Assembly: GCA_021129515.1 (NCBI GenBank)
Contig: JAJOLD010000001.1
Span: 61,633 to 125,632 of the forward strand
Length of the DNA: 64,000 nucleotides
From: Minisyncoccota bacterium
Lineage (GTDB): Bacteria > Patescibacteriota > Minisyncoccia > Phycocordibacterales > UBA918
Reading direction: 5' to 3'
The notes beneath the pieces were generated by a model. That model was not told the origin of the DNA, ran no database searches, and saw only the letters and a program-made list of their open reading frames with translations. This document shows positions 2,743-57,183 of the stretch, in pieces; position 1 is the stretch's first letter; each line of letters starts with the position of its first letter. A program made the position numbers and the translations under genes.

Positions 2743-5382
2743 ATGGCATCAAAAAAACAACCAAAAACTGGCTGGCATGCACGCGATGACGAACACATCA
2801 TCATCCGCGGCGCACGCACACACAACCTCAAAAATATTGACGTCGATATGCCACGCAACAAACTGGTGGTGATTACTGGACTTTCTGGATCGGGCAAGTC
2901 ATCACTTGCATTTGACACTATCTTTGCAGAAGGGCAGCGACGCTATATTGAATCACTATCAGCATACGCACGACAGTTTCTTCGGCAAATGCAAAAACCC
3001 GACATCGATGAAATCTCAGGGCTTTCTCCCGCTATTTCAATTGACCAAAAGTCAGCATCGCGCAATCCACGCTCCACTGTAGCGACCATTACCGAAATAT
3101 ATGACTATTTGCGCATCCTCTATGCGCGCATAGGGCAACCCTACTGTATTGATACCGATGTACCTATTCAAAAACTCTCACAAGATGAGATTTTAGGTAT
3201 TATATTGAAGTCAATCGAAGAAAAAGAAATCAAAAAAGCGACCAAGGCCTCTGCTCAAGAGGTCATGGGTGTGTCAGTAAGTACCGCAAAGGTAGCCATT
3301 TTTTCACCAGTAGTTGTTGGAAGAAAAGGTGAATACTACCAACTTCTCTACGATTTGCTCGGTAAAGGCTACGAAACGGTCAAAATCGATGGGGAAGTGA
3401 AGCAGCTTCGTGAGAAAATCACCCTGAGCAAAACAAAACGCCATGACATAGATGTGCTCATCGACAAAATCTATGTCAGTGAGTTTACAGACGATCCTAA
3501 AGGATCAAAAGAGCGTCTTTCAGAAGCGGTAGAACTCGCACTCAAAGAATCTGAGGGTCTGGTCAAAATTGAGAACCCTGATGGCACCGAGCGCACCCTC
3601 TCTGCAAAATTTATTTGTCCGGTTGATGGCTCCTCATTCCCAGAGGTAGAGCCACGCCTTTTTTCTTTCAATTCGCCCTATGGTGCCTGTGAGGAGTGTA
3701 ATGGACTTGGTACCGTGGGTCTCTTTAATACTGACATTTGTCCAAGTTGTAAGGGTGCACGACTCCGCAAAGAAGCACTTCGGGTATATCTTGGTGGCGA
3801 TGGTAAAAAAGATTTAGGTAAGAACATTGTCGATTTCACCTCTATGACCATCGAGGAAGCCGCTGACTTTATCGCCAATCTCAAACTCAGTAAAACAGAA
3901 CAAGACATTGCATGGCCTGCATTACGTGAAATCATTGAACGCTTGCAGTTTATGATAAATGTTGGTATTGAATACCTCACACTCGATAGACGTGCGAACA
4001 CCCTCTCAGGTGGTGAAGCACAGCGTATTAGGCTTGCCTCACAACTCGGTTCAGGACTGGTAGGAGCACTCTATGTGCTTGATGAACCCACAATAGGGCT
4101 CCATCAACGCGATAATGACCGCCTCATAAAAACCCTTACCGAACTGCGTGACCTTGGCAATACCATCGTCGTAGTCGAGCACGACGAAGACACTATCTAT
4201 GCAGCAGATTATATCGTTGACATTGGTCCTGGAGCAGGAGTCCATGGGGGAGAAGTGGTTGTGTCTGGCTATCTCGACACGTTGCTCGATGCAAAAACCA
4301 ATCCTTCAAAGTCGGTCACACTTGACTATCTCCGCGGAGACAGAGCCATCCCCATACCTGAGCAACGACGAGATGCAGAAAAGGGCTCCCTCAAAATTCG
4401 CGGTGGCAAAGCATTCAACATCAAAAACGCGCAGATAGATATACCGTTGGGTAGATTTATTGCTGTTACGGGTGTTTCAGGATCAGGAAAGTCAACATTT
4501 ATGTATGAAATTGTACACAAAAACCTCAGGTCACGCCTTGATAAAAAATACCGCACCCCAGATACCTACAACGCAAAAAGCGTTACCGGCACCGAGTATC
4601 TTGGGCGCACTATCCTTATAGACCAGTCACCAATTGGGCGCACTCCACGCTCTAACCCTGCGACATATACAGGTGCATTTACCCATATTCGTGATTTATT
4701 TGCCGCAACCAGTGAGGCACGCGCGCGCGGTTGGAAATCTGGACGATTTTCTTTTAACGTCAAAGGTGGTCGGTGTGAGGCGTGTCAGGGTAATGGTATG
4801 GTTGCTATTGAGATGCATTTTTTGCCAACTGTGTATGTAACCTGTGACGTTTGCAACGGCACCCGATTTACCAAAGAAACACTCGACGTTACCTATAAAG
4901 ACAAAAATATCCACGAGGTACTCCATATGACCATTGAAGAAGCCGACAACTTTTTCATTGACGTACCAGCTATTCATGAGCGACTTAAGGCGCTCCTCGA
5001 CGTCGGACTTGGTTATCTTGAGCTTGGACAAAGCGCAACGACACTCTCTGGAGGGGAAGCACAGCGTGTCAAAATTGCGTCAGAGCTCTATCGTCCACAT
5101 ACAAGCAAAACCATGTACCTACTCGATGAACCGACTATCGGACTGCATTACGAAGATGTTCGAAAATTAATTGAAATTCTCCAAGAATTGGTCAACCGAG
5201 GCAACACCGTTATGGTCATTGAGCACAATCTTGACCTTATTAAATGCGCAGACTATATCATTGACATTGGACCTGAGGGTGGCGCACGCGGTGGCAACAT
5301 CGTTGCAAAGGGTACACCGGAAGATGTGGCTAAAAACAAAGACTCTTTCACCGGTCACTATCTCAAAAAGCTTTTGAAATAG
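2743..5382 (+). CDS. uvrA: Excinuclease ABC subunit A
   Basis: Two ABC ATPase modules ([12 protein letters not shown]..., [12 protein letters not shown]...), LSGGEAQR signatures and Cys-rich zinc-finger segments; 879 aa. Confidence 0.95.
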
Positions 5383-11915: not shown

Positions 11916-12770
11916 ATGTTTGTACTCGACACCTCAGGCAACGATGTGCATGAGCATATACTCTCAACCGCATGGGATGTATCGACCGCATCACATGAGT
12001 CAAACTATGACTTTACCACCTACGAAACGAGTGCACAGGGCATCACCTTCAACACCGACGGTACTGCTATGTGCATTTCAGGTATTGATAGTGACGAAAT
12101 ACAAACCTTCTCACTTTCTGTAGGGTATGACCTCTCGTCAACCATTACCCATGAGCATTCCCAGAGCATATCGACACATATTGTTGATCCAAATGGTCTT
12201 GTATTTAACAACGACGGTACACGACTCTATGTCGTTGACGCAGACCCTGAAGATGTGACCATGTATGATTTAGATGCTGAAATGAGCGCACATGTCGTTC
12301 TTGATGGCACTGAAAATAGTCATACAGCCACAAGTACCACACCCGTGATTGGACGGGGTAAAATAGGGCAAGGGATTGCACTCGATGGTACCGCTGATTA
12401 CATCGATGTTGGAAATGTAGCATCAGGGATTCAAACGATAGCTTTTTGGATGAAGGCAGATGACATCACCACTCGAGATATTATTGATATTGACGGTACC
12501 GATAGAATTGAAATAAATGGATCAAGCACCATTGTTGCCACAAGCTTTCCAACATATACCATCTATGTAGATGGTTCTTCGAGTTCAGCAACCATTGATA
12601 GTGATTGGCATCATGTGGCAATTACTGTGTCTGCGGGCGTAAACGCAAGCGACTTTGAAATAGGACGGGCAGATGGAGGCTTCTTTGATGGAAACATTGA
12701 TGACGTGCGGCTCTATACAAGTGTCTTAACACAAGACGAGATTACACAACTGTATGGACTTGGCAGATAG
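11916..12770 (+). CDS. LamG / concanavalin-A-like lectin domain protein preceded by beta-propeller-like repeats; possibly 5'-truncated
   Basis: C-terminal GTADYIDVG...FDGNIDDVRLYTSVLTQDEITQLYGLGR (LamG hallmark). The repeat units (F.TDGTAM.V.D) continue upstream of the first ATG with no in-frame canonical start back to the stop at 11829. Confidence 0.55.
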   Translation: MFVLDTSGNDVHEHILSTAWDVSTASHESNYDFTTYETSAQGITFNTDGTAMCISGIDSDEIQTFSLSVGYDLSSTITHEHSQSISTHIVDPNGLVFNNDGTRLYVVDADPEDVTMYDLDAEMSAHVVLDGTENSHTATSTTPVIGRGKIGQGIALDGTADYIDVGNVASGIQTIAFWMKADDITTRDIIDIDGTDRIEINGSSTIVATSFPTYTIYVDGSSSSATIDSDWHHVAITVSAGVNASDFEIGRADGGFFDGNIDDVRLYTSVLTQDEITQLYGLGR

Positions 12771-12794
12771 GCTTTTGCAATGACTATTACTTTT

Positions 12795-13499
12795 TTACAA
12801 TCCCAAATCCTTTAAAAACTGCTTCTGTTCTTCTCCAGTGATTTTGCGAAACTGTCCAGGCTTAATGTCTTTAATTGCAATATCCATAATACGCACTCGC
12901 TTCAATCGCTGGACTTGGTAGCCGAGTGCTGCACACATACGGCGGATTTGGTGTTTCTTACCCTCGGTGAGGGTAATAGTAAATGAGTTCTTTTGCTTGG
13001 GGTGTACCTCAGCTGGCTTAGTTGTGTAGCCCTCTATGTCGACACCCTCTTCCATATGCTTTTTGAAGTGACCGGTAAGGTTCTTATCTACCCAGACGGC
13101 ATACTCTTTTTCATGTGCATTATCGGGATGGAGCAGTCGGTCAGTAATACGCCCATCGTTGGTGAGTATAATGAGTCCTTCGGAATCCTTGTCGATACGA
13201 CCAACAGGGAAAACACCAGTGAGTCCATAGTCCTTTTTAATACGGGCCTCAATATCAGTTTCTCCTTCAGCCGGTGAATGAGTAATAACACCGCGCGGCT
13301 TGTAGTACGCAAGGTATTGGTATTGCTTGGCAGGCTTAAAGCGGACGTCAACGACATCGCCTTCGTTTATTTTCTGCCCAACCGCTGCAACCTCGCCATT
13401 AACCAGCACTTTGCCAGCGGCAATCAACTCATCAGCAGCCCGGCGGGTACAGTGCCCCTTGTGTGCAAGATATTTGTTTATACGAATTGGATATTCCAT
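12795..13499 (-). CDS. Pseudouridine synthase, RsuA/RluB family (S4 domain + PseudoU_synth_2)
   Basis: KYLAHKGHCTRRAADELIAAGKVLVNG (S4); GRIDKDSEGLIILTNDG catalytic Asp motif. Confidence 0.85.
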   Translation of the reverse strand: MEYPIRINKYLAHKGHCTRRAADELIAAGKVLVNGEVAAVGQKINEGDVVDVRFKPAKQYQYLAYYKPRGVITHSPAEGETDIEARIKKDYGLTGVFPVGRIDKDSEGLIILTNDGRITDRLLHPDNAHEKEYAVWVDKNLTGHFKKHMEEGVDIEGYTTKPAEVHPKQKNSFTITLTEGKKHQIRRMCAALGYQVQRLKRVRIMDIAIKDIKPGQFRKITGEEQKQFLKDLGL

Positions 13500-15408: not shown

Positions 15409-15439
15409 CGACGTCAAAAAGCAACGCTTTTTGACGTCG
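15409..15439. repeat. 31-bp hairpin with perfect 14-bp arms in a divergent promoter region
   Basis: CGACGTCAAAAAGCaacGCTTTTTGACGTCG. Confidence 0.6.
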
Positions 15440-15610
15440 TTACGAGCGAATGCGAAGCAATCCAGAATCTTTGCTACAAAGTACGACTTAAGATATGAAT
15501 TTTAATTAACATAGGTGCCCAGGAAGATACTTGACGTATTAAGAATGTGATGTAGAATATTTCGCAGTAATTAGTTATTCTTATCTTTCTACATCTACTG
15601 GGAGACCGAC

Positions 15611-16706: not shown

Positions 16707-17960
16707 ATGAGAAAATTGATACACATGAAACAGACGGCAAAAGACCTCTTTATTCCACATGAAGGCAATGCATATGCGCCAAATGTATTGCAGCGAGTAT
16801 CGATAGGAATCATGGCAGTATTGGTCCTACTCTCGTTTGCCCTCGCGAACCTGCAAGCCTTGTTGTGGATTGGTTCAGATTGGATGGTGGGTACCGTACT
16901 GCCGGCGGTCATTGTCGAACTCACGAATGATGAACGTGCAGATGATACACTCGGTATGCTCACACGAAATGCACTGCTTGATGCTGCAGCAACCCAAAAA
17001 GCAAAACATATGGCACAGCATGAATACTTTGCACACTATAGTCCAGATGGCACGTCTCCATGGCACTGGTTCGATGCCGTAGCATATGACTTTGTGCATG
17101 CGGGGGAGAATCTCGCGGTACACTTTAGTGAATCAGACGCTGTCGTGCATGCATGGATGGACTCACCAGGACATCGTGCAAATATTCTCAACGGTGACTA
17201 CACAGAAATTGGCGTTGGGACGGCACAGGGAACTTATAAGGGCTTCCCAACAGTGTTTGTAGTACAACTCTTTGGAACACCACAGGCTATAGCTGCACCA
17301 CCTGAAACGGTTACCCAAGAACCTCCGAGTACCACCACGCAGCCAACCACCACAACACCCACGACAACCAACAATCCACAGGGTGCACAGCCAACACCGA
17401 CCACCACTCCAATCGAAACTCCACTACTCCAAGATACTGAAGTGGCTGGTGTCGATATCATTGCGTTACCTGTGGTTGAAGAAATAGCACTCGCAGTACC
17501 CACCACCACACCTGCAACTGTCGCTTCTTCTGAAGACACCCCTCCAGAGACCAGCTATGCATCCCCGTCAGATACAGCACTTCTCACCGAGCACCATGAA
17601 ACGGCACCCGCAGAAGAAACGGTACATGAAGTACTGGTGGTATACTCAGATTTTGCGACCACATCACGCAGTGGTGTAGCAGCAATGCTTGGTGCTGATT
17701 CGTTTAGTCATGCTACCTCAGGTGGCACCGCACCAACGGCAGGACTCATGGAGCGGAGCGCTACACAGTCAAGCACCTGGCTCCAAGCAGTGTACGTAAC
17801 GCTTGCTGCGTTTGTCGTCATCGCACTCGTGCTCTCTATTGTGGTTGAGTGGCGAAGACAACATCCTGCGCAAATTGCATACGGCACGGGGCTCTTGGCA
17901 GGAATGGCACTGTTATTCTACGCACATACACTACTAGTCGGCGGTGTCACGATTGTGTAA
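16707..17960 (+). CDS. Membrane-anchored CAP/SCP (YkwD-like) domain protein with Thr/Pro-rich linker and C-terminal TM
   Basis: HYSPDGTSPWHWF...HAWMDSPGHRANILNGDYTEIGVG CAP-domain motifs; TM helices at both ends. Confidence 0.7.
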   Translation: MRKLIHMKQTAKDLFIPHEGNAYAPNVLQRVSIGIMAVLVLLSFALANLQALLWIGSDWMVGTVLPAVIVELTNDERADDTLGMLTRNALLDAAATQKAKHMAQHEYFAHYSPDGTSPWHWFDAVAYDFVHAGENLAVHFSESDAVVHAWMDSPGHRANILNGDYTEIGVGTAQGTYKGFPTVFVVQLFGTPQAIAAPPETVTQEPPSTTTQPTTTTPTTTNNPQGAQPTPTTTPIETPLLQDTEVAGVDIIALPVVEEIALAVPTTTPATVASSEDTPPETSYASPSDTALLTEHHETAPAEETVHEVLVVYSDFATTSRSGVAAMLGADSFSHATSGGTAPTAGLMERSATQSSTWLQAVYVTLAAFVVIALVLSIVVEWRRQHPAQIAYGTGLLAGMALLFYAHTLLVGGVTIV

Positions 17961-18022
17961 TAAGGATTGTCTATACAAGAAACAACTATACACATACTCG
18001 GCTCGGGACACTCAAGGAATCA

Positions 18023-18409
18023 CATGACCCGAAGATACTCTATCGTTCGCGTCCAGCAGCGGGGTTTCCCGTTCCAGGAGACGACGCAGTAGAACAAATC
18101 CTCGATATTAATGACCTTGTGGTGAAGAATCCTTCAGCCACCTTTTTTGTACGCGTCGAGAGTGACTCAATGAAACATGCGGGTATTTTTTCTGACGATG
18201 TATTAGTCATCGACCGCTCGGTACAGCCAACACATGGATGCATTGTCGTTGCTGCCGTGTATGGTGAGATGGTTGTTAAGCGGCTCGCACTCACAGACAA
18301 TACGCTCACATTGGTTTCAGAAAATCCTGACTATGCACCGATAGTGGTATCGGACTCCGAAGACTGCCATATATGGGGTGTCGTTGTGGGGAGTATCCGA
18401 GTGTTTTAG
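18023..18409 (+). CDS. umuD: UmuD-like S24 peptidase (LexA C-terminal domain only); start codon unresolved
   Basis: PAAG|FPVPGDDAVEQILDINDLVVKNPSATFFVRVESDSMKHAG...VVKRL aligns with E. coli UmuD including the Ala-Gly cleavage site and Ser/Lys dyad. The ORF-track reading (from 17849) overlaps the upstream gene; no in-frame ATG, GTG or TTG after 17960. Confidence 0.55.
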   Translation, partial: HDPKILYRSRPAAGFPVPGDDAVEQILDINDLVVKNPSATFFVRVESDSMKHAGIFSDDVLVIDRSVQPTHGCIVVAAVYGEMVVKRLALTDNTLTLVSENPDYAPIVVSDSEDCHIWGVVVGSIRVF

Positions 18410-25899: not shown

Positions 25900-25912
25900 G
25901 TGGGTGACTTCT

Positions 25913-26092
25913 GGATTGCTTCGTCATTCCGTTTCACTCCACTTCTCGCAATGACGTCTAGCTGAAACTTACTGTATCCGACTAATTAGTCGGATACAGT
26001 ACGTATGTTGTGTGCTGCGACGGCTAAAAGCGAAGATTTTAGCCGGTGACGAACGCGAAGCGTTCGTCATTGCGAACGGAGTGAAGCAATCC
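25913..26092. repeat. Dense inverted-repeat cluster / MITE-like structured element
   Basis: Terminal inverted segments (GGATTGCTTC...TCGCAATGACG vs CGTCATTGCGA...GAAGCAATCC). Central 30-bp perfect palindrome ACTGTATCCGACTAATTAGTCGGATACAGT (25971-26000). Two further perfect hairpins (CGGCTAAAAgcgaagaTTTTAGCCG; GACGAACGCgaaGCGTTCGTC). Confidence 0.6.
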
Positions 26093-26201
26093 AGTAGGTA
26101 AAAAATCCTGAAAATAGGGGCTAAACTAGAGTAACACAGAAAAAACGGCTTAAAACATGCCTATTGTAACTATTGACACACATCCGAAGTCATTGCATAA
26201 C

Positions 26202-29159: not shown

Positions 29160-29201
29160 CGGCACAAACTAAAGCTTAAAAGTTATCAACACAAGAAAAA
29201 C

Positions 29202-29230
29202 TTGACGGTGAACGAACGTTCACCTATACT
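29202..29230 (+). promoter_or_regulatory. Promoter (TTGACG-17-TATACT) with an SOS/Cheo-type LexA box (GGTGAACGAACGTTCACC) filling the spacer
   Basis: The 8-bp inverted arms GGTGAACG/CGTTCACC contain the GAAC-N4-GTTC core; located 45 bp upstream of the small ORF + lexA. Confidence 0.65.
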
Positions 29231-29275
29231 ATATGTATCACTTGGAGAGGAGATTATACATTTAGGTCAAGGTAT

Positions 29276-29476
29276 ATGAGCAAAAAAGAATACATCAAAG
29301 CACTCAACGAAGAAATCCAAAAGCTAAACGGTCTTATCGACTACAAAATCATCCATGACGATGACTACCGCAGGGAAGCGCGCCGTCACAAAAAGCTCCT
29401 TGCACAGATTCGTAGGGAAGAGGCAGGACGAATGGTCAACCGACTCATGCGTACCCTCGTACCATCATGGAAATAA
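29276..29476 (+). CDS. Small basic protein (66 aa), first gene of the putative SOS operon
   Basis: MSKKEYIKALNEEIQKLNGL...RREARRHKKLLAQIRRE; AAGGT 4 nt upstream of the ATG; ends 10 bp before lexA. Confidence 0.5.
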   Translation: MSKKEYIKALNEEIQKLNGLIDYKIIHDDDYRREARRHKKLLAQIRREEAGRMVNRLMRTLVPSWK

Positions 29477-29485
29477 TCACACAGT

Positions 29486-30064
29486 ATGAGCAAGTACGAA
29501 TCATACAAAGAAAAAATATTCGCATTCTACGAAGCGCAAAAGCGCATGCCCAGCTATGCCGAAATCATGGAGCTCGTCGGCTTTAAGTCAAAAAATGCCG
29601 TATCAAAACTCATCGACAAGCTCATGGATGAAGGACTTATCGATAAAGATGCACAGGGGAGACTCATCCCCGCGTCACTCGACACCGGTGTACCACTCTT
29701 GGGGCTGGTAGAAGCCGGCATTCCCACCATGGCAGATGCCGACATGCTCGACTCTATTAGTCTTGATAACTACCTAATAGAAGATAAAGCAAAAACCTTC
29801 ATCCTCGAGGTAAAGGGTGACTCAATGATTGAGGCGCATATCGAAGAAGGCGACTACGTCATTGCAGAACGCACCGAAGATGCACGCGACCGCGATATTG
29901 TCGTGGCAGAAGTCGATGGAGAGTGGACGCTCAAATATCTCCGTAAAGATCCCGCACAAAATACCATCTGGCTTGAACCGGCAAACAAGAACTATGCACC
30001 CATTCATCCCGCGCATTCATTGCGCATTGCAGCAATTGTAAAGGGTGTATTAAGGAAATATTAG
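29486..30064 (+). CDS. lexA: LexA repressor
   Basis: N-terminal winged HTH (AEIMELVGFKSKNAVSKLIDKLMDEGLI), Ala-Gly cleavage site (VEAG), S24 peptidase with GDSM and KYL Ser/Lys dyad. Confidence 0.9.
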   Translation: MSKYESYKEKIFAFYEAQKRMPSYAEIMELVGFKSKNAVSKLIDKLMDEGLIDKDAQGRLIPASLDTGVPLLGLVEAGIPTMADADMLDSISLDNYLIEDKAKTFILEVKGDSMIEAHIEEGDYVIAERTEDARDRDIVVAEVDGEWTLKYLRKDPAQNTIWLEPANKNYAPIHPAHSLRIAAIVKGVLRKY

Positions 30065-30106
30065 TTAGTCAGATAAACTACACGCTTAGTTTATCTGACT
30101 AACTAA
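30061..30106. repeat. Perfect 20-bp-stem hairpin overlapping the lexA stop codon
   Basis: TTAGTTAGTCAGATAAACTAcacgctTAGTTTATCTGACTAACTAA; no U-run. Confidence 0.7.
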
Positions 30107-30252
30107 TTCCGTGTCATCATTGCGAAGCATGGAGCAGAGCGGAATGCTGAAGCCTGACTGCATGCGACGCACCTGTTTGCGTAAGTATACGCACAGGCAA
30201 TCCAGAAAGGGTAACCAACATAAAACTTTTTATGTTATAACGTCTATCACAT

Positions 30253-30993
30253 ATGAAGATAGGCTTTTTTGATTCAGGACTCGGGGGACTCACCATTATG
30301 GATGCGGTACGAGCGGCGATGCCGCAGTACGACTACTATTACTACGGAGACACCGCGCACGTGCCGTATGGCGATAAGACCGAAGCAGAAGTATACGAGC
30401 TCACAAAAGCTGGTGTGACACACCTCTTTGAACAAGGTGCGCTCATCGTGATTATTGCCTGCAACACCGCGTCTGCAGAAACACTCCGCAAACTGCAAGA
30501 CACTTTTTTAGTAGAAGCATATCCTGACCGGCGTATTCTCGGCATGATAATTCCCACCATAGAAACCCTCTTAGCTGCAGGCAGCACAAAACCCTTACTC
30601 ATAGGAACCAAGCGCACCGTTGATTCAGGCAAGTACCAAATTGAGCTTGATAAAGTTTCAGAAACACATATTGCGTTACAATCCCTCGCAACACCAACAC
30701 TCGTGCCGTATCTTGAAGCAAAAAGTAGCAACAAGGCGTGTGCGGAACTCACGCAACTGTTGCATGCCTACGCACACCCCTTTGATGCACTTATTTTAGG
30801 ATGCACGCACTACACGATACTTACTGACTGCGTACGTAACCAATATGGTGACCAATGTGTCGTACTCTCACAAGACGAAATCATTCCAACCAAACTCCAA
30901 GAATATCTCAGTCGACACCCAACACTTGAACATGCCTTGACTAAGGGTAGAAACACAACTTGTTACTATAGTGGAGCGTCACACACTATCTGA
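30253..30993 (+). CDS. murI: Glutamate racemase
   Basis: FDSGLGGLTIM, ACNTAS and LGCTHY active-site motifs. Confidence 0.9.
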   Translation: MKIGFFDSGLGGLTIMDAVRAAMPQYDYYYYGDTAHVPYGDKTEAEVYELTKAGVTHLFEQGALIVIIACNTASAETLRKLQDTFLVEAYPDRRILGMIIPTIETLLAAGSTKPLLIGTKRTVDSGKYQIELDKVSETHIALQSLATPTLVPYLEAKSSNKACAELTQLLHAYAHPFDALILGCTHYTILTDCVRNQYGDQCVVLSQDEIIPTKLQEYLSRHPTLEHALTKGRNTTCYYSGASHTI

Positions 30994-52621: not shown

Positions 52622-52733
52622 GATGTGACTATGGAGATGTAAGTGGTCGCTCTCTGGATTGCCTGCCTGTGCATGTTCACATGCAATCGGGCTTGTCACT
52701 TCACTTCGTTTCGCTCCTCGCAATGACGGTAGG

Positions 52734-56496: not shown

Positions 56497-57183
56497 TATA
56501 AATGGAAAAGAGTGTTGTGTAAAGAGAATTTTAGGGCTTGTATAAAGGGTATAATAGTGATGTAAAGATTCCTGGTTATTTAGGCGCCGCCGCGCTTGCT
56601 TATTAACCAACTGTGCTCGTGCTACGAGAACAGTTAAACCAATAAAAAATATTACAACTTATTTTGTGATTAAAAAACCCTGAAATTTTATTTCGGGGGG
56701 TTAATAGAGCTACACACATCAATCAAAGAATTCGTCAGCGGGCTCTATATTGAGCTCTACTACCATCTTAATAATCTCATTCCGAGTAACTAATTGTGGA
56801 ATCAGTGATTCATGACCAAGATACATGGGCGAATATATATAGTTCCTTGCTCGTCTTTGTTTCCGAATGAACTCAGGTATTACTTCGTCTACGGGTATAT
56901 TTTGCGTATTTGCAATCAATTGCTTGAACAAAGGTTCAAGGTCAGTACCCGAATATTACTGAATAATTTCTAGGTTTGTCACTGCTTGTCTCCTTTGGAA
57001 CGAAATCAAACTTTCAACTACCATATCTGCATATAAAGTGCATGATATTTTTTATCGTTTACCTCACAAGTTGCTAACTATTTTAAGAAACTGCGTTTTT
57101 AAAATAGTAAGTACTCGCGAGCCCGCCTCGCGGTTCGTCGCCCTAGGTTAGGGGCGACTCACAACGCTCCGGCCGTCGAAACT

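Follow-up and report, generated by a model that had tools for sequence, protein, structure and literature searches.

A lexA operon in a Patescibacteria genome with a predicted LexA operator in its promoter spacer and a conserved small protein ahead of lexA

The lexA locus and its promoter

This work focuses on the lexA locus of a Minisyncoccota bacterium, on contig JAJOLD010000001.1 of assembly GCA_021129515.1. We analysed 64,000 nucleotides of that contig (positions 61,633 to 125,632 of the forward strand), and we call this whole stretch the window; coordinates are counted from its first letter. The locus consists of a 9-mer that resembles a DnaA box, a promoter with a palindrome between its two hexamers, a small open reading frame (ORF), lexA, and a perfect hairpin with a dispersed repeat beside it (Table 1).

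Table 1. Features of the lexA locus, and copies of the dispersed repeat elsewhere in the window
Feature	Position	Strand	Remarks
DnaA-box-like 9-mer TTATCAACA	29183-29191	+	one mismatch to TTATCCACA, at position 6
-35 hexamer TTGACG	29202-29207	+	promoter scan; 10 of 12 promoter positions match the consensus; TTGAC/TTGCA kept here in relatives
Predicted LexA operator GGTGAAC-GAAC-GTTCACC	29207-29224	+	core GTGAAC-N4-GTTCAC at 29208-29223
-10 hexamer TATACT	29225-29230	+	promoter scan; conserved in relatives
Small ORF	29276-29476	+	66 amino acids (aa); uncharacterised Patescibacteria family; homologues, lexA linkage and ratio of nonsynonymous to synonymous change (dN/dS) examined
lexA	29486-30064	+	192 aa; probable winged helix-turn-helix (HTH) domain and S24 autopeptidase domain; TIGR00498, Pfam S24
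Perfect A+T-rich hairpin, 21 bp	30060-30107		arms 30060-30080 and 30087-30107, loop of 6 nt
Dispersed intergenic repeat (G)TCATTGCGAA ... GAAGCAATCCAGAA	30116-30207	+	on the 3' flank of the hairpin
Repeat copy	15440-15467		palindrome 15409-15439 alongside
Repeat copy	25909-25955	-	inverted pair with the next, flanking palindrome 25967-26004
Repeat copy	26066-26096		inverted pair with the preceding
Repeat copy	52654-52727	-

The product of lexA matches the LexA equivalog model TIGR00498 over its full length (122.5 bits against a cutoff of 110.95) and the Peptidase_S24 domain (PF00717) with E = 5e-26. An alignment to E. coli LexA structures sets A77-G78, S113 and K150 against A84-G85, S119 and K156, which are the cleavage site and the catalytic dyad. 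The N-terminus aligns to the LexA DNA-binding domain in hits from the PDB, from residue 14-21 onward. By these matches the frame is a bona fide LexA with intact autocleavage residues.

The promoter at 29202-29230 reads TTGACG-GTGAACGAACGTTCACC-TATACT and is the top-scoring sigma-70-like site between 28500 and 31000. An initial annotation of this DNA, made from its letters, stated that a sequence with a GAAC-N4-GTTC core fills the 17-bp spacer between TTGACG and TATACT, and the letters agree: the spacer is 17 nt long, the core lies at 29210-29221, and the first G of the wider palindrome GGTGAAC-N4-GTTCACC doubles as the last base of the -35 hexamer. Transcription is predicted to start at about 29237, at a conserved 'AT' 7 nt 3' of the -10 hexamer. 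The core alone is common, with 2 copies in the window against 1.0 expected; the complete GTGAAC-N4-GTTCAC is there once. We judge the other core, at 56926 (TTGAAC...GTTCAA, near grpE at the start of a small ORF on the minus strand), to be a chance match. GAAC-N4-GTTC is the Gram-positive LexA consensus (PMC11442139). The flanks are not those of the Cheo type, which has C and G next to the core (CGAAC...GTTCG); they are T...A (GTGAAC...GTTCAC) in all lexA-proximal sites of the clade. Judged by its letters, the operator is a lineage-specific variant of the GAAC-N4-GTTC class, with arms GTGAAC and GTTCAC.

The promoter module in related genomes

The argument for an operator comes from 38 related loci, made up of 6 contigs that encode homologues of the small ORF and 32 species-representative genomes whose LexA is 52-68% identical to that of the window. 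All 32 are Patescibacteria (Paceibacterota, Zambryskibacteria, Taylorbacteria and similar). In the 575 kb formed by the window and these loci the exact box GTGAAC-N4-GTTCAC occurs 37 times against 0 expected, every time within the promoter spacer of the operon of small ORF and lexA. It stands 5' of lexA in 36 of the 38 related loci. Another (L026) has a copy in the same place with one mismatch, AAAC in one arm of the core, and the last (L030) is on a contig that ends before the promoter. Wherever a related locus has the promoter, the spacer between TTGAC/TTGCA and TATACT/TATAAT is formed by the box. Its arms are invariant, its N4 bases vary between loci, and the sequence beyond the promoter is not conserved. 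Distant actinobacterial LexA loci that came up in the same scan show the known TCGAAC-N4-GTTCGA boxes near lexA, which gives the method a positive control. Weaker boxes show no surplus within 10 kb of lexA in the 38 relatives (up to 2 mismatches, 6 against 16.7 expected). The initial annotation had proposed an SOS operator in the lexA promoter, and comparison strongly supports one inside the promoter spacer; that LexA binds it is our prediction.

One of these loci (L022) carries a second full-length lexA paralogue at 12230-12960 on the minus strand, 51% identical and leaderless, with a Y-family polymerase gene after it. Its promoter has the same layout and a diverged spacer box, TTGACA-TTAGAACAAACGTTCTAC-TATACT, that is TAGAAC-N4-GTTCTA. 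This looks like divergence of the operator after duplication of lexA.

We also scanned metagenome contigs for the exact pattern GGTGAAC-N4-GTTCAC-Y-TATA, which gave at least 120 loci and, with 3 viral hits, at least 124 matches; the counts in this paragraph and the next are among the matches listed. The viral matches (L207-L209) lack a -35 hexamer and look like chance. The small ORF follows the box in at least 82 of the at least 124 matches. At 72 of those 82 sites lexA is within reach, 9 are cut by the end of the contig, and 1 is a split locus (L146). The box drives lexA or an S24 gene directly at 26 matches or more, mostly leaderless with the ATG 7 nt after the -10 hexamer, and in four loci (L087, L100, L138, L155) the order is box, leaderless lexA, small ORF. 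In the split locus the small ORF (609-812) and lexA (3356-3925) are 2.5 kb apart with three unrelated genes between them, and each has its own copy of the whole module (module and gene together 579-812 and 3316-3925) in the order TTATCCCCA, -35, LexA box, -10. Since the small ORF has its own promoter and box there, it would itself be LexA-controlled. Expression of the small protein is thus, as far as these promoters predict it, tied to a LexA box in three arrangements: before lexA, after lexA, and apart from it. Where lexA, or in some loci the small ORF, directly follows the promoter (e.g. L102, L119, L158), the ATG 7 nt after the -10 hexamer implies leaderless mRNAs. In leadered versions such as the window, the conserved 'AT' (about 29237) holds the position of the leaderless ATG.

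The module has other targets. It precedes operons of a umuD-like gene and a Y-family polymerase in three loci (L101, L120, L189), a Y-family polymerase alone (L178) and an S24-only gene (L197). Among SOS targets the translesion polymerases are the most conserved (PMC8565304), so finding them behind the module supports LexA as the protein that binds it. Two large methylase-like genes of the restriction-modification type (L089, L110) and a gene resembling a phage terminase small subunit (L111, L142) also have the module upstream; these identities were assigned by eye from motifs. LexA control of defence or prophage functions in Patescibacteria is possible on this evidence.

The window itself offers no comparable regulon. 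Near-matches to GTGAAC-N4-GTTCAC with up to 3 mismatches are not in excess (18 against 31 expected). The initial annotation had suggested looking for boxes near uvrA, recA and the umuD-like gene. The window's uvrA (2743-5382) and umuD-like gene (17849-18409) both lack a box, and recA was not found in the window or the related loci by tblastn with an E. coli RecA query. On other Patescibacteria contigs the box does precede the umuD-like/Y-family polymerase operons. The further genes of the window are tRNA synthetases, dnaK-grpE-dnaJ, murG-ftsW-mraY, rpoA, uvrA and other housekeeping genes. The umuD-like gene, on the + strand, encodes an S24 peptidase domain (about 18041-18406) with the motifs AAGFP, SDSM and VVKRL and no HTH domain. 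It has no adjacent Y-family polymerase and no obvious ATG; the sole listed in-frame start is a GTG, which overlaps the preceding CAP-domain gene by 112 nt.

A further element accompanies the promoter. The 9-mer TTATCAACA ends 10 nt before the -35 hexamer, and its centre is about 50 nt upstream of the predicted transcription start. It was tested against the pattern TTATNCACA, whose consensus TTATCCACA is the consensus DnaA box (PMC8203912). In related promoters TTATCCACA, in + orientation, begins 22-25 nt ahead of GTGAAC and is thereby 5-8 nt upstream of the -35 hexamer. At that offset 76 of 153 related promoters (loci L001-L206) have it exactly and 45 with one mismatch (121/153, 79%), against 3% in control windows taken at random from the same loci. 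Exact copies number 32 in 493 kb of related genomes, against 3.8 expected, and 17 of the 32 are at the promoter of the lexA operon. The window has no exact TTATCCACA, and copies with one mismatch are not enriched in it (15 against 18 expected). These counts rule out a general promoter element of these genomes. Among the matches listed, the element is present at 75 of 82 small-ORF promoters but at no more than 8 of the 26 whose direct target is lexA or an S24 gene, a difference that may reflect phylogeny. That DnaA would bind here we infer from the consensus only. Elsewhere in the window, TTATCGACA at 355-363 also differs from the DnaA box by one mismatch. A TATACT (394-399) follows 31 nt downstream, ahead of gene 407-2683, itself before uvrA; the spacing is similar to that of the lexA promoter.

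The small protein and the hairpin

The small ORF ends 9 nt before lexA, in the same frame. The initial annotation described its product as an unannotated basic protein of 66 aa. The length and the basic character stand (pI 10.1; the family median is 10.6), but the protein is already in NCBI, where an identical sequence is hypothetical protein LR017_00385 of a Candidatus Pacebacteria metagenome-assembled genome. The same annotation proposed to look for the ORF near lexA in related genomes, and it adjoins lexA in 38 of 38 related loci. The gap between the two frames is -4 to +25 nt in most loci and -4 to +4 nt in many. Where it could be computed, among close relatives, dN/dS is 0.11-0.16; the differences per site are 0.16-0.29 nonsynonymous and 0.68-0.99 synonymous, the latter saturated. 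The other reading frames across the ORF are closed. A leader or non-coding segment is ruled out by dN/dS and by the conserved length and motifs, and the comparison shows the product to be a genuine protein under selection. The claim that its gene is LexA-regulated, also made in the initial annotation, is supported by the comparison: the gene is conserved and evolves under purifying selection, it stays linked to lexA whichever of the two comes first, and in the split locus it has a promoter and box of its own.

At 90% identity the family forms 244 clusters, and at 50% (E up to 1e-3) it has at least 375 representatives. Its members are 48-147 aa long, never fused to another domain, all named 'hypothetical', and none has a Pfam domain. 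The small ORF carries the motif E[IL]xxLNxxIDxKI[IV]xGxxYxxEARRHKxL and, after it, an amphipathic tail at the C-terminus. In an alignment of 40 sequences E13, N18, I21, D22, Y31, E34, R37, H38 and K39 are invariant. The last 14 or so residues are amphipathic or hydrophobic, MVNRLMRTLVPSWK in the window protein and typically SWFxR...VSTFMF in relatives. The proteins have no transmembrane-grade segment: in 39 family members no 19-residue Kyte-Doolittle window has a mean above 1.6. AlphaFold2, run on a 40-sequence alignment, predicts a helical hairpin with helices at 3-26 and 32-61. The mean predicted local distance difference test score (pLDDT) is 86.5; residues 1-50 score above 90 and the tail scores about 60.

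The window protein has no match in Pfam, NCBIfam, PHROG or the PDB, and none in these is consistent across the family. Foldseek against the PDB returns generic helical hairpins only (E above 0.8), and no homologue was found in viral contigs. The Sda protein of B. subtilis is a DnaA-controlled checkpoint protein that is also a helical hairpin. Kinship with Sda was rejected, with an hhalign probability of 0.2%.

The hairpin at the end of lexA is a different matter. The initial annotation noticed a perfect 20-bp stem without a U-tract there, and the stem is real and slightly longer, at 21 bp. Only 5 of its 21 pairs are G-C, its minimum free energy is -34 kcal/mol (z = -7), and its 5' arm contains the lexA stop codon TAG (30062-30064). 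It does not have the makings of an intrinsic terminator, given the A+T-rich stem and the tail TCCGTGTCATCA, which has no T-run on the + strand. Comparison does not bear out its place in the SOS unit. Of the relatives, 36 have sequence beyond the 3' end of lexA, and in all of these any perfect stem after the gene is at most 9 bp long. In the syntenic lexA-murI locus (L001) the intergenic gap is 44 nt against 188 nt in the window. BLAST of 30055-30255 against 209 loci gave no match, and Rfam gave none. A conserved terminator or riboregulator is ruled out by this distribution together with the empty Rfam and BLAST searches.

What adjoins the hairpin suggests another origin. The 3' motif of the dispersed repeat occurs 7 times in the window against 0.54 expected, and three repeat copies are beside long perfect palindromes (15409-15439, 25967-26004 and the hairpin itself). 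One arm of the hairpin matches an arm of the palindrome at 25967-26004 at 13 of 16 bases. With no counterpart in 36 relatives and a dispersed repeat at its side, the hairpin falls outside the conserved SOS unit. It is best read as part of a strain-specific insertion that bears the repeat, and at most it would end or stabilise the transcript in this strain. The repeat may be an element of the REP/MITE-like kind (repetitive extragenic palindromes and miniature inverted-repeat transposable elements): it is short, has several intergenic copies with long perfect palindromes nearby, and varies between related genomes. It differs from such elements in having no Rfam family, and it has five copies in 64 kb.

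One could argue instead that the hairpin is a working part of the lexA unit: a terminator without a U-tract, a site for RNase III or a stabiliser of the mRNA by which the level of LexA is set. In favour of this, the perfect stem is very stable and is placed exactly at the end of lexA, murI starts 146 nt beyond it on the same strand, and a terminator scan does report it, on the minus strand only, owing to the T-rich tail there. However, relatives lack it, including the syntenic one; the sense strand has no T-run, while canonical U-tract terminators are used elsewhere in the genome; and it abuts the repeat and resembles a palindrome flanked by that same repeat. We find a role in the lexA unit doubtful and keep to the insertion.

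Readings of the operon and known systems

We consider it likely that 29183-30064 is the autoregulated SOS master operon of a Paceibacteria-type bacterium of the Patescibacteria, or candidate phyla radiation (CPR). A LexA dimer on the palindrome would cover the DNA between the -35 and -10 hexamers and so keep RNA polymerase off. After DNA damage, RecA on single-stranded DNA would trigger self-cleavage of LexA at A77-G78 by S113 and K150. The promoter would then open, and one transcript would deliver the 66-aa protein first and new LexA second. Translation of the two is probably coupled, since the frames are so close here and abut or overlap in many relatives. The DnaA-box-like 9-mer upstream of the -35 hexamer probably adds an input from replication status.

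Some points weigh against this model. LexA_DNA_bind (PF01726) scores 22.0 bits, just below its cutoff of 23.7; the window has no second box; and the case is comparative throughout. The single box, with no regulon demonstrable in the window, would also suit the view that the palindrome belongs to another regulator or is merely a conserved promoter spacer. We believe this is very improbable. The palindrome is of the GAAC-N4-GTTC class of LexA motifs (PMC11442139), more than 150 loci link it to lexA, and its module also precedes the translesion operons that are the most conserved SOS targets (PMC8565304). The lexA paralogue described above has a diverged box at the same position, which is what one would expect if each LexA reads its own operator.

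What the 66-aa protein does is a harder question, and our answers to it are graded guesses. We rank first, tentatively, an effector of a DNA-damage checkpoint that would belong, by function, with SulA, YneA and SosA. Small, lineage-specific LexA-controlled genes beside lexA are typically division inhibitors (PMC11442139), and this is what suggests the reading. A basic helical hairpin would reach its target, possibly the membrane or the divisome, through the amphipathic C-terminal tail. There is much to set against it. The guess draws only on position, size and the chemistry of the tail. YneA, SosA and SidA have a transmembrane helix and this protein does not, nor is it similar to SulA in a Pfam search. 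A protein that partners LexA or RecA would account equally well for the close coupling of its gene to lexA in one operon.

Such a partner, a co-repressor or a modulator of cleavage made in fixed proportion with LexA, has role analogues in gp7 of phage GIL01 and in DinI and RecX. All 38 genome loci have the two genes in one operon, as do 72 of the 73 listed metagenome sites with both genes in reach. Their frames abut or overlap in many of these, the linkage is kept in both orders, and the protein is predicted to be all-helical. The separate transcription units of the split locus fit less well, though, and about a quarter of the Patescibacteria lexA promoters of this type, among the matches listed, have no small gene nearby. 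The viral contigs searched hold no homologue, and neither a PDB profile search nor Foldseek finds sequence or fold similarity to any solved partner protein. We hold the partner to be rather unlikely. Less likely again is a small basic regulator that binds nucleic acid, possibly at the TTATCCACA-like element of its own promoter, which would make a second SOS feedback loop. The high pI of the family, the invariant R-H-K of EARRHK in helix 2 and the frequency of the element at small-ORF promoters speak for it. Against this, shared ancestry alone may account for the co-occurrence of element and small ORF; DnaA offers the simpler candidate, TTATCCACA being its canonical box (PMC8203912); a helical hairpin would not usually target a single asymmetric 9-mer; and no DNA-binding fold was recognised by Foldseek or the family search. 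The checkpoint effector therefore keeps its tentative first place.

A large part of bacterial diversity belongs to the Patescibacteria (CPR), whose genomes are very small with few regulators and of which almost all are uncultured. The set of genes that LexA controls in them shows what a minimal DNA-damage response needs. A 66-aa gene bound to lexA in hundreds of species, with no known family, could be a new checkpoint or LexA-modulating factor, and a fixed DnaA-like box beside a LexA box suggests a single promoter that reads both DNA damage and replication status. It is conceivable, and we put it forward with reserve, that the small protein founds a new class of Patescibacteria-specific SOS factors obligatorily coupled to lexA, whether checkpoint effector or LexA- or DNA-binding co-regulator, and that a fixed module (DnaA-like box, -35, LexA box in the spacer, -10), copied before translesion polymerase, methylase-like and phage-like genes, makes an SOS master promoter that integrates two signals.

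Sanchez-Osuna, Barbe and Erill (Environ Microbiol 2017;19:3465) reportedly made a comparative study of the SOS (LexA) network of Patescibacteria. We know it as it is cited in PMC8565304 (ref. 9) and PMC7739468, and as far as those citations go the likeness is in the superphylum, the regulator and a LexA box upstream of lexA, which places the operator within the framework already published. A full-text literature search gave nothing further on LexA in Patescibacteria. We take the predicted operator and autoregulation of lexA to be of a known kind; that study aside, we know of no description of the small-protein family, of its obligate linkage to lexA or of the DnaA-like box.

SosA, YneA and SulA are mutually unrelated small division inhibitors under LexA control, and sosA adjoins lexA (PMC11442139). 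Our gene resembles sosA of S. aureus, yneA of B. subtilis and sulA of E. coli and Pseudomonas in being small, lineage-specific, predicted to be LexA-controlled, and adjacent to or co-transcribed with lexA. It differs in that its product has no transmembrane helix, LysM domain or SulA homology, and in that it is co-directional with lexA and usually upstream of it in one operon. For the 9-mer, the nearest parallel is the dual control by DnaA and LexA at E. coli uvrB and recN (Wurihan et al. 2018, in the summary given in PMC8203912). On that summary the likeness is a 9-mer of the DnaA-box type beside a LexA-repressed promoter, predicted to be so in our case, but here the candidate DnaA site is at the lexA operon itself, at a fixed offset in many species, and the window copy has one mismatch. 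The operator, finally, resembles the Gram-positive Cheo box (CGAAC-N4-GTTCG, read by LexA/DinR) and the actinobacterial TCGAAC-N4-GTTCGA in its GAAC-N4-GTTC core, in the predicted autoregulation of lexA and in overlapping the promoter. It differs from the Cheo box in having flanks GT...AC instead of C...G, and in being a single operator placed exactly in the spacer.

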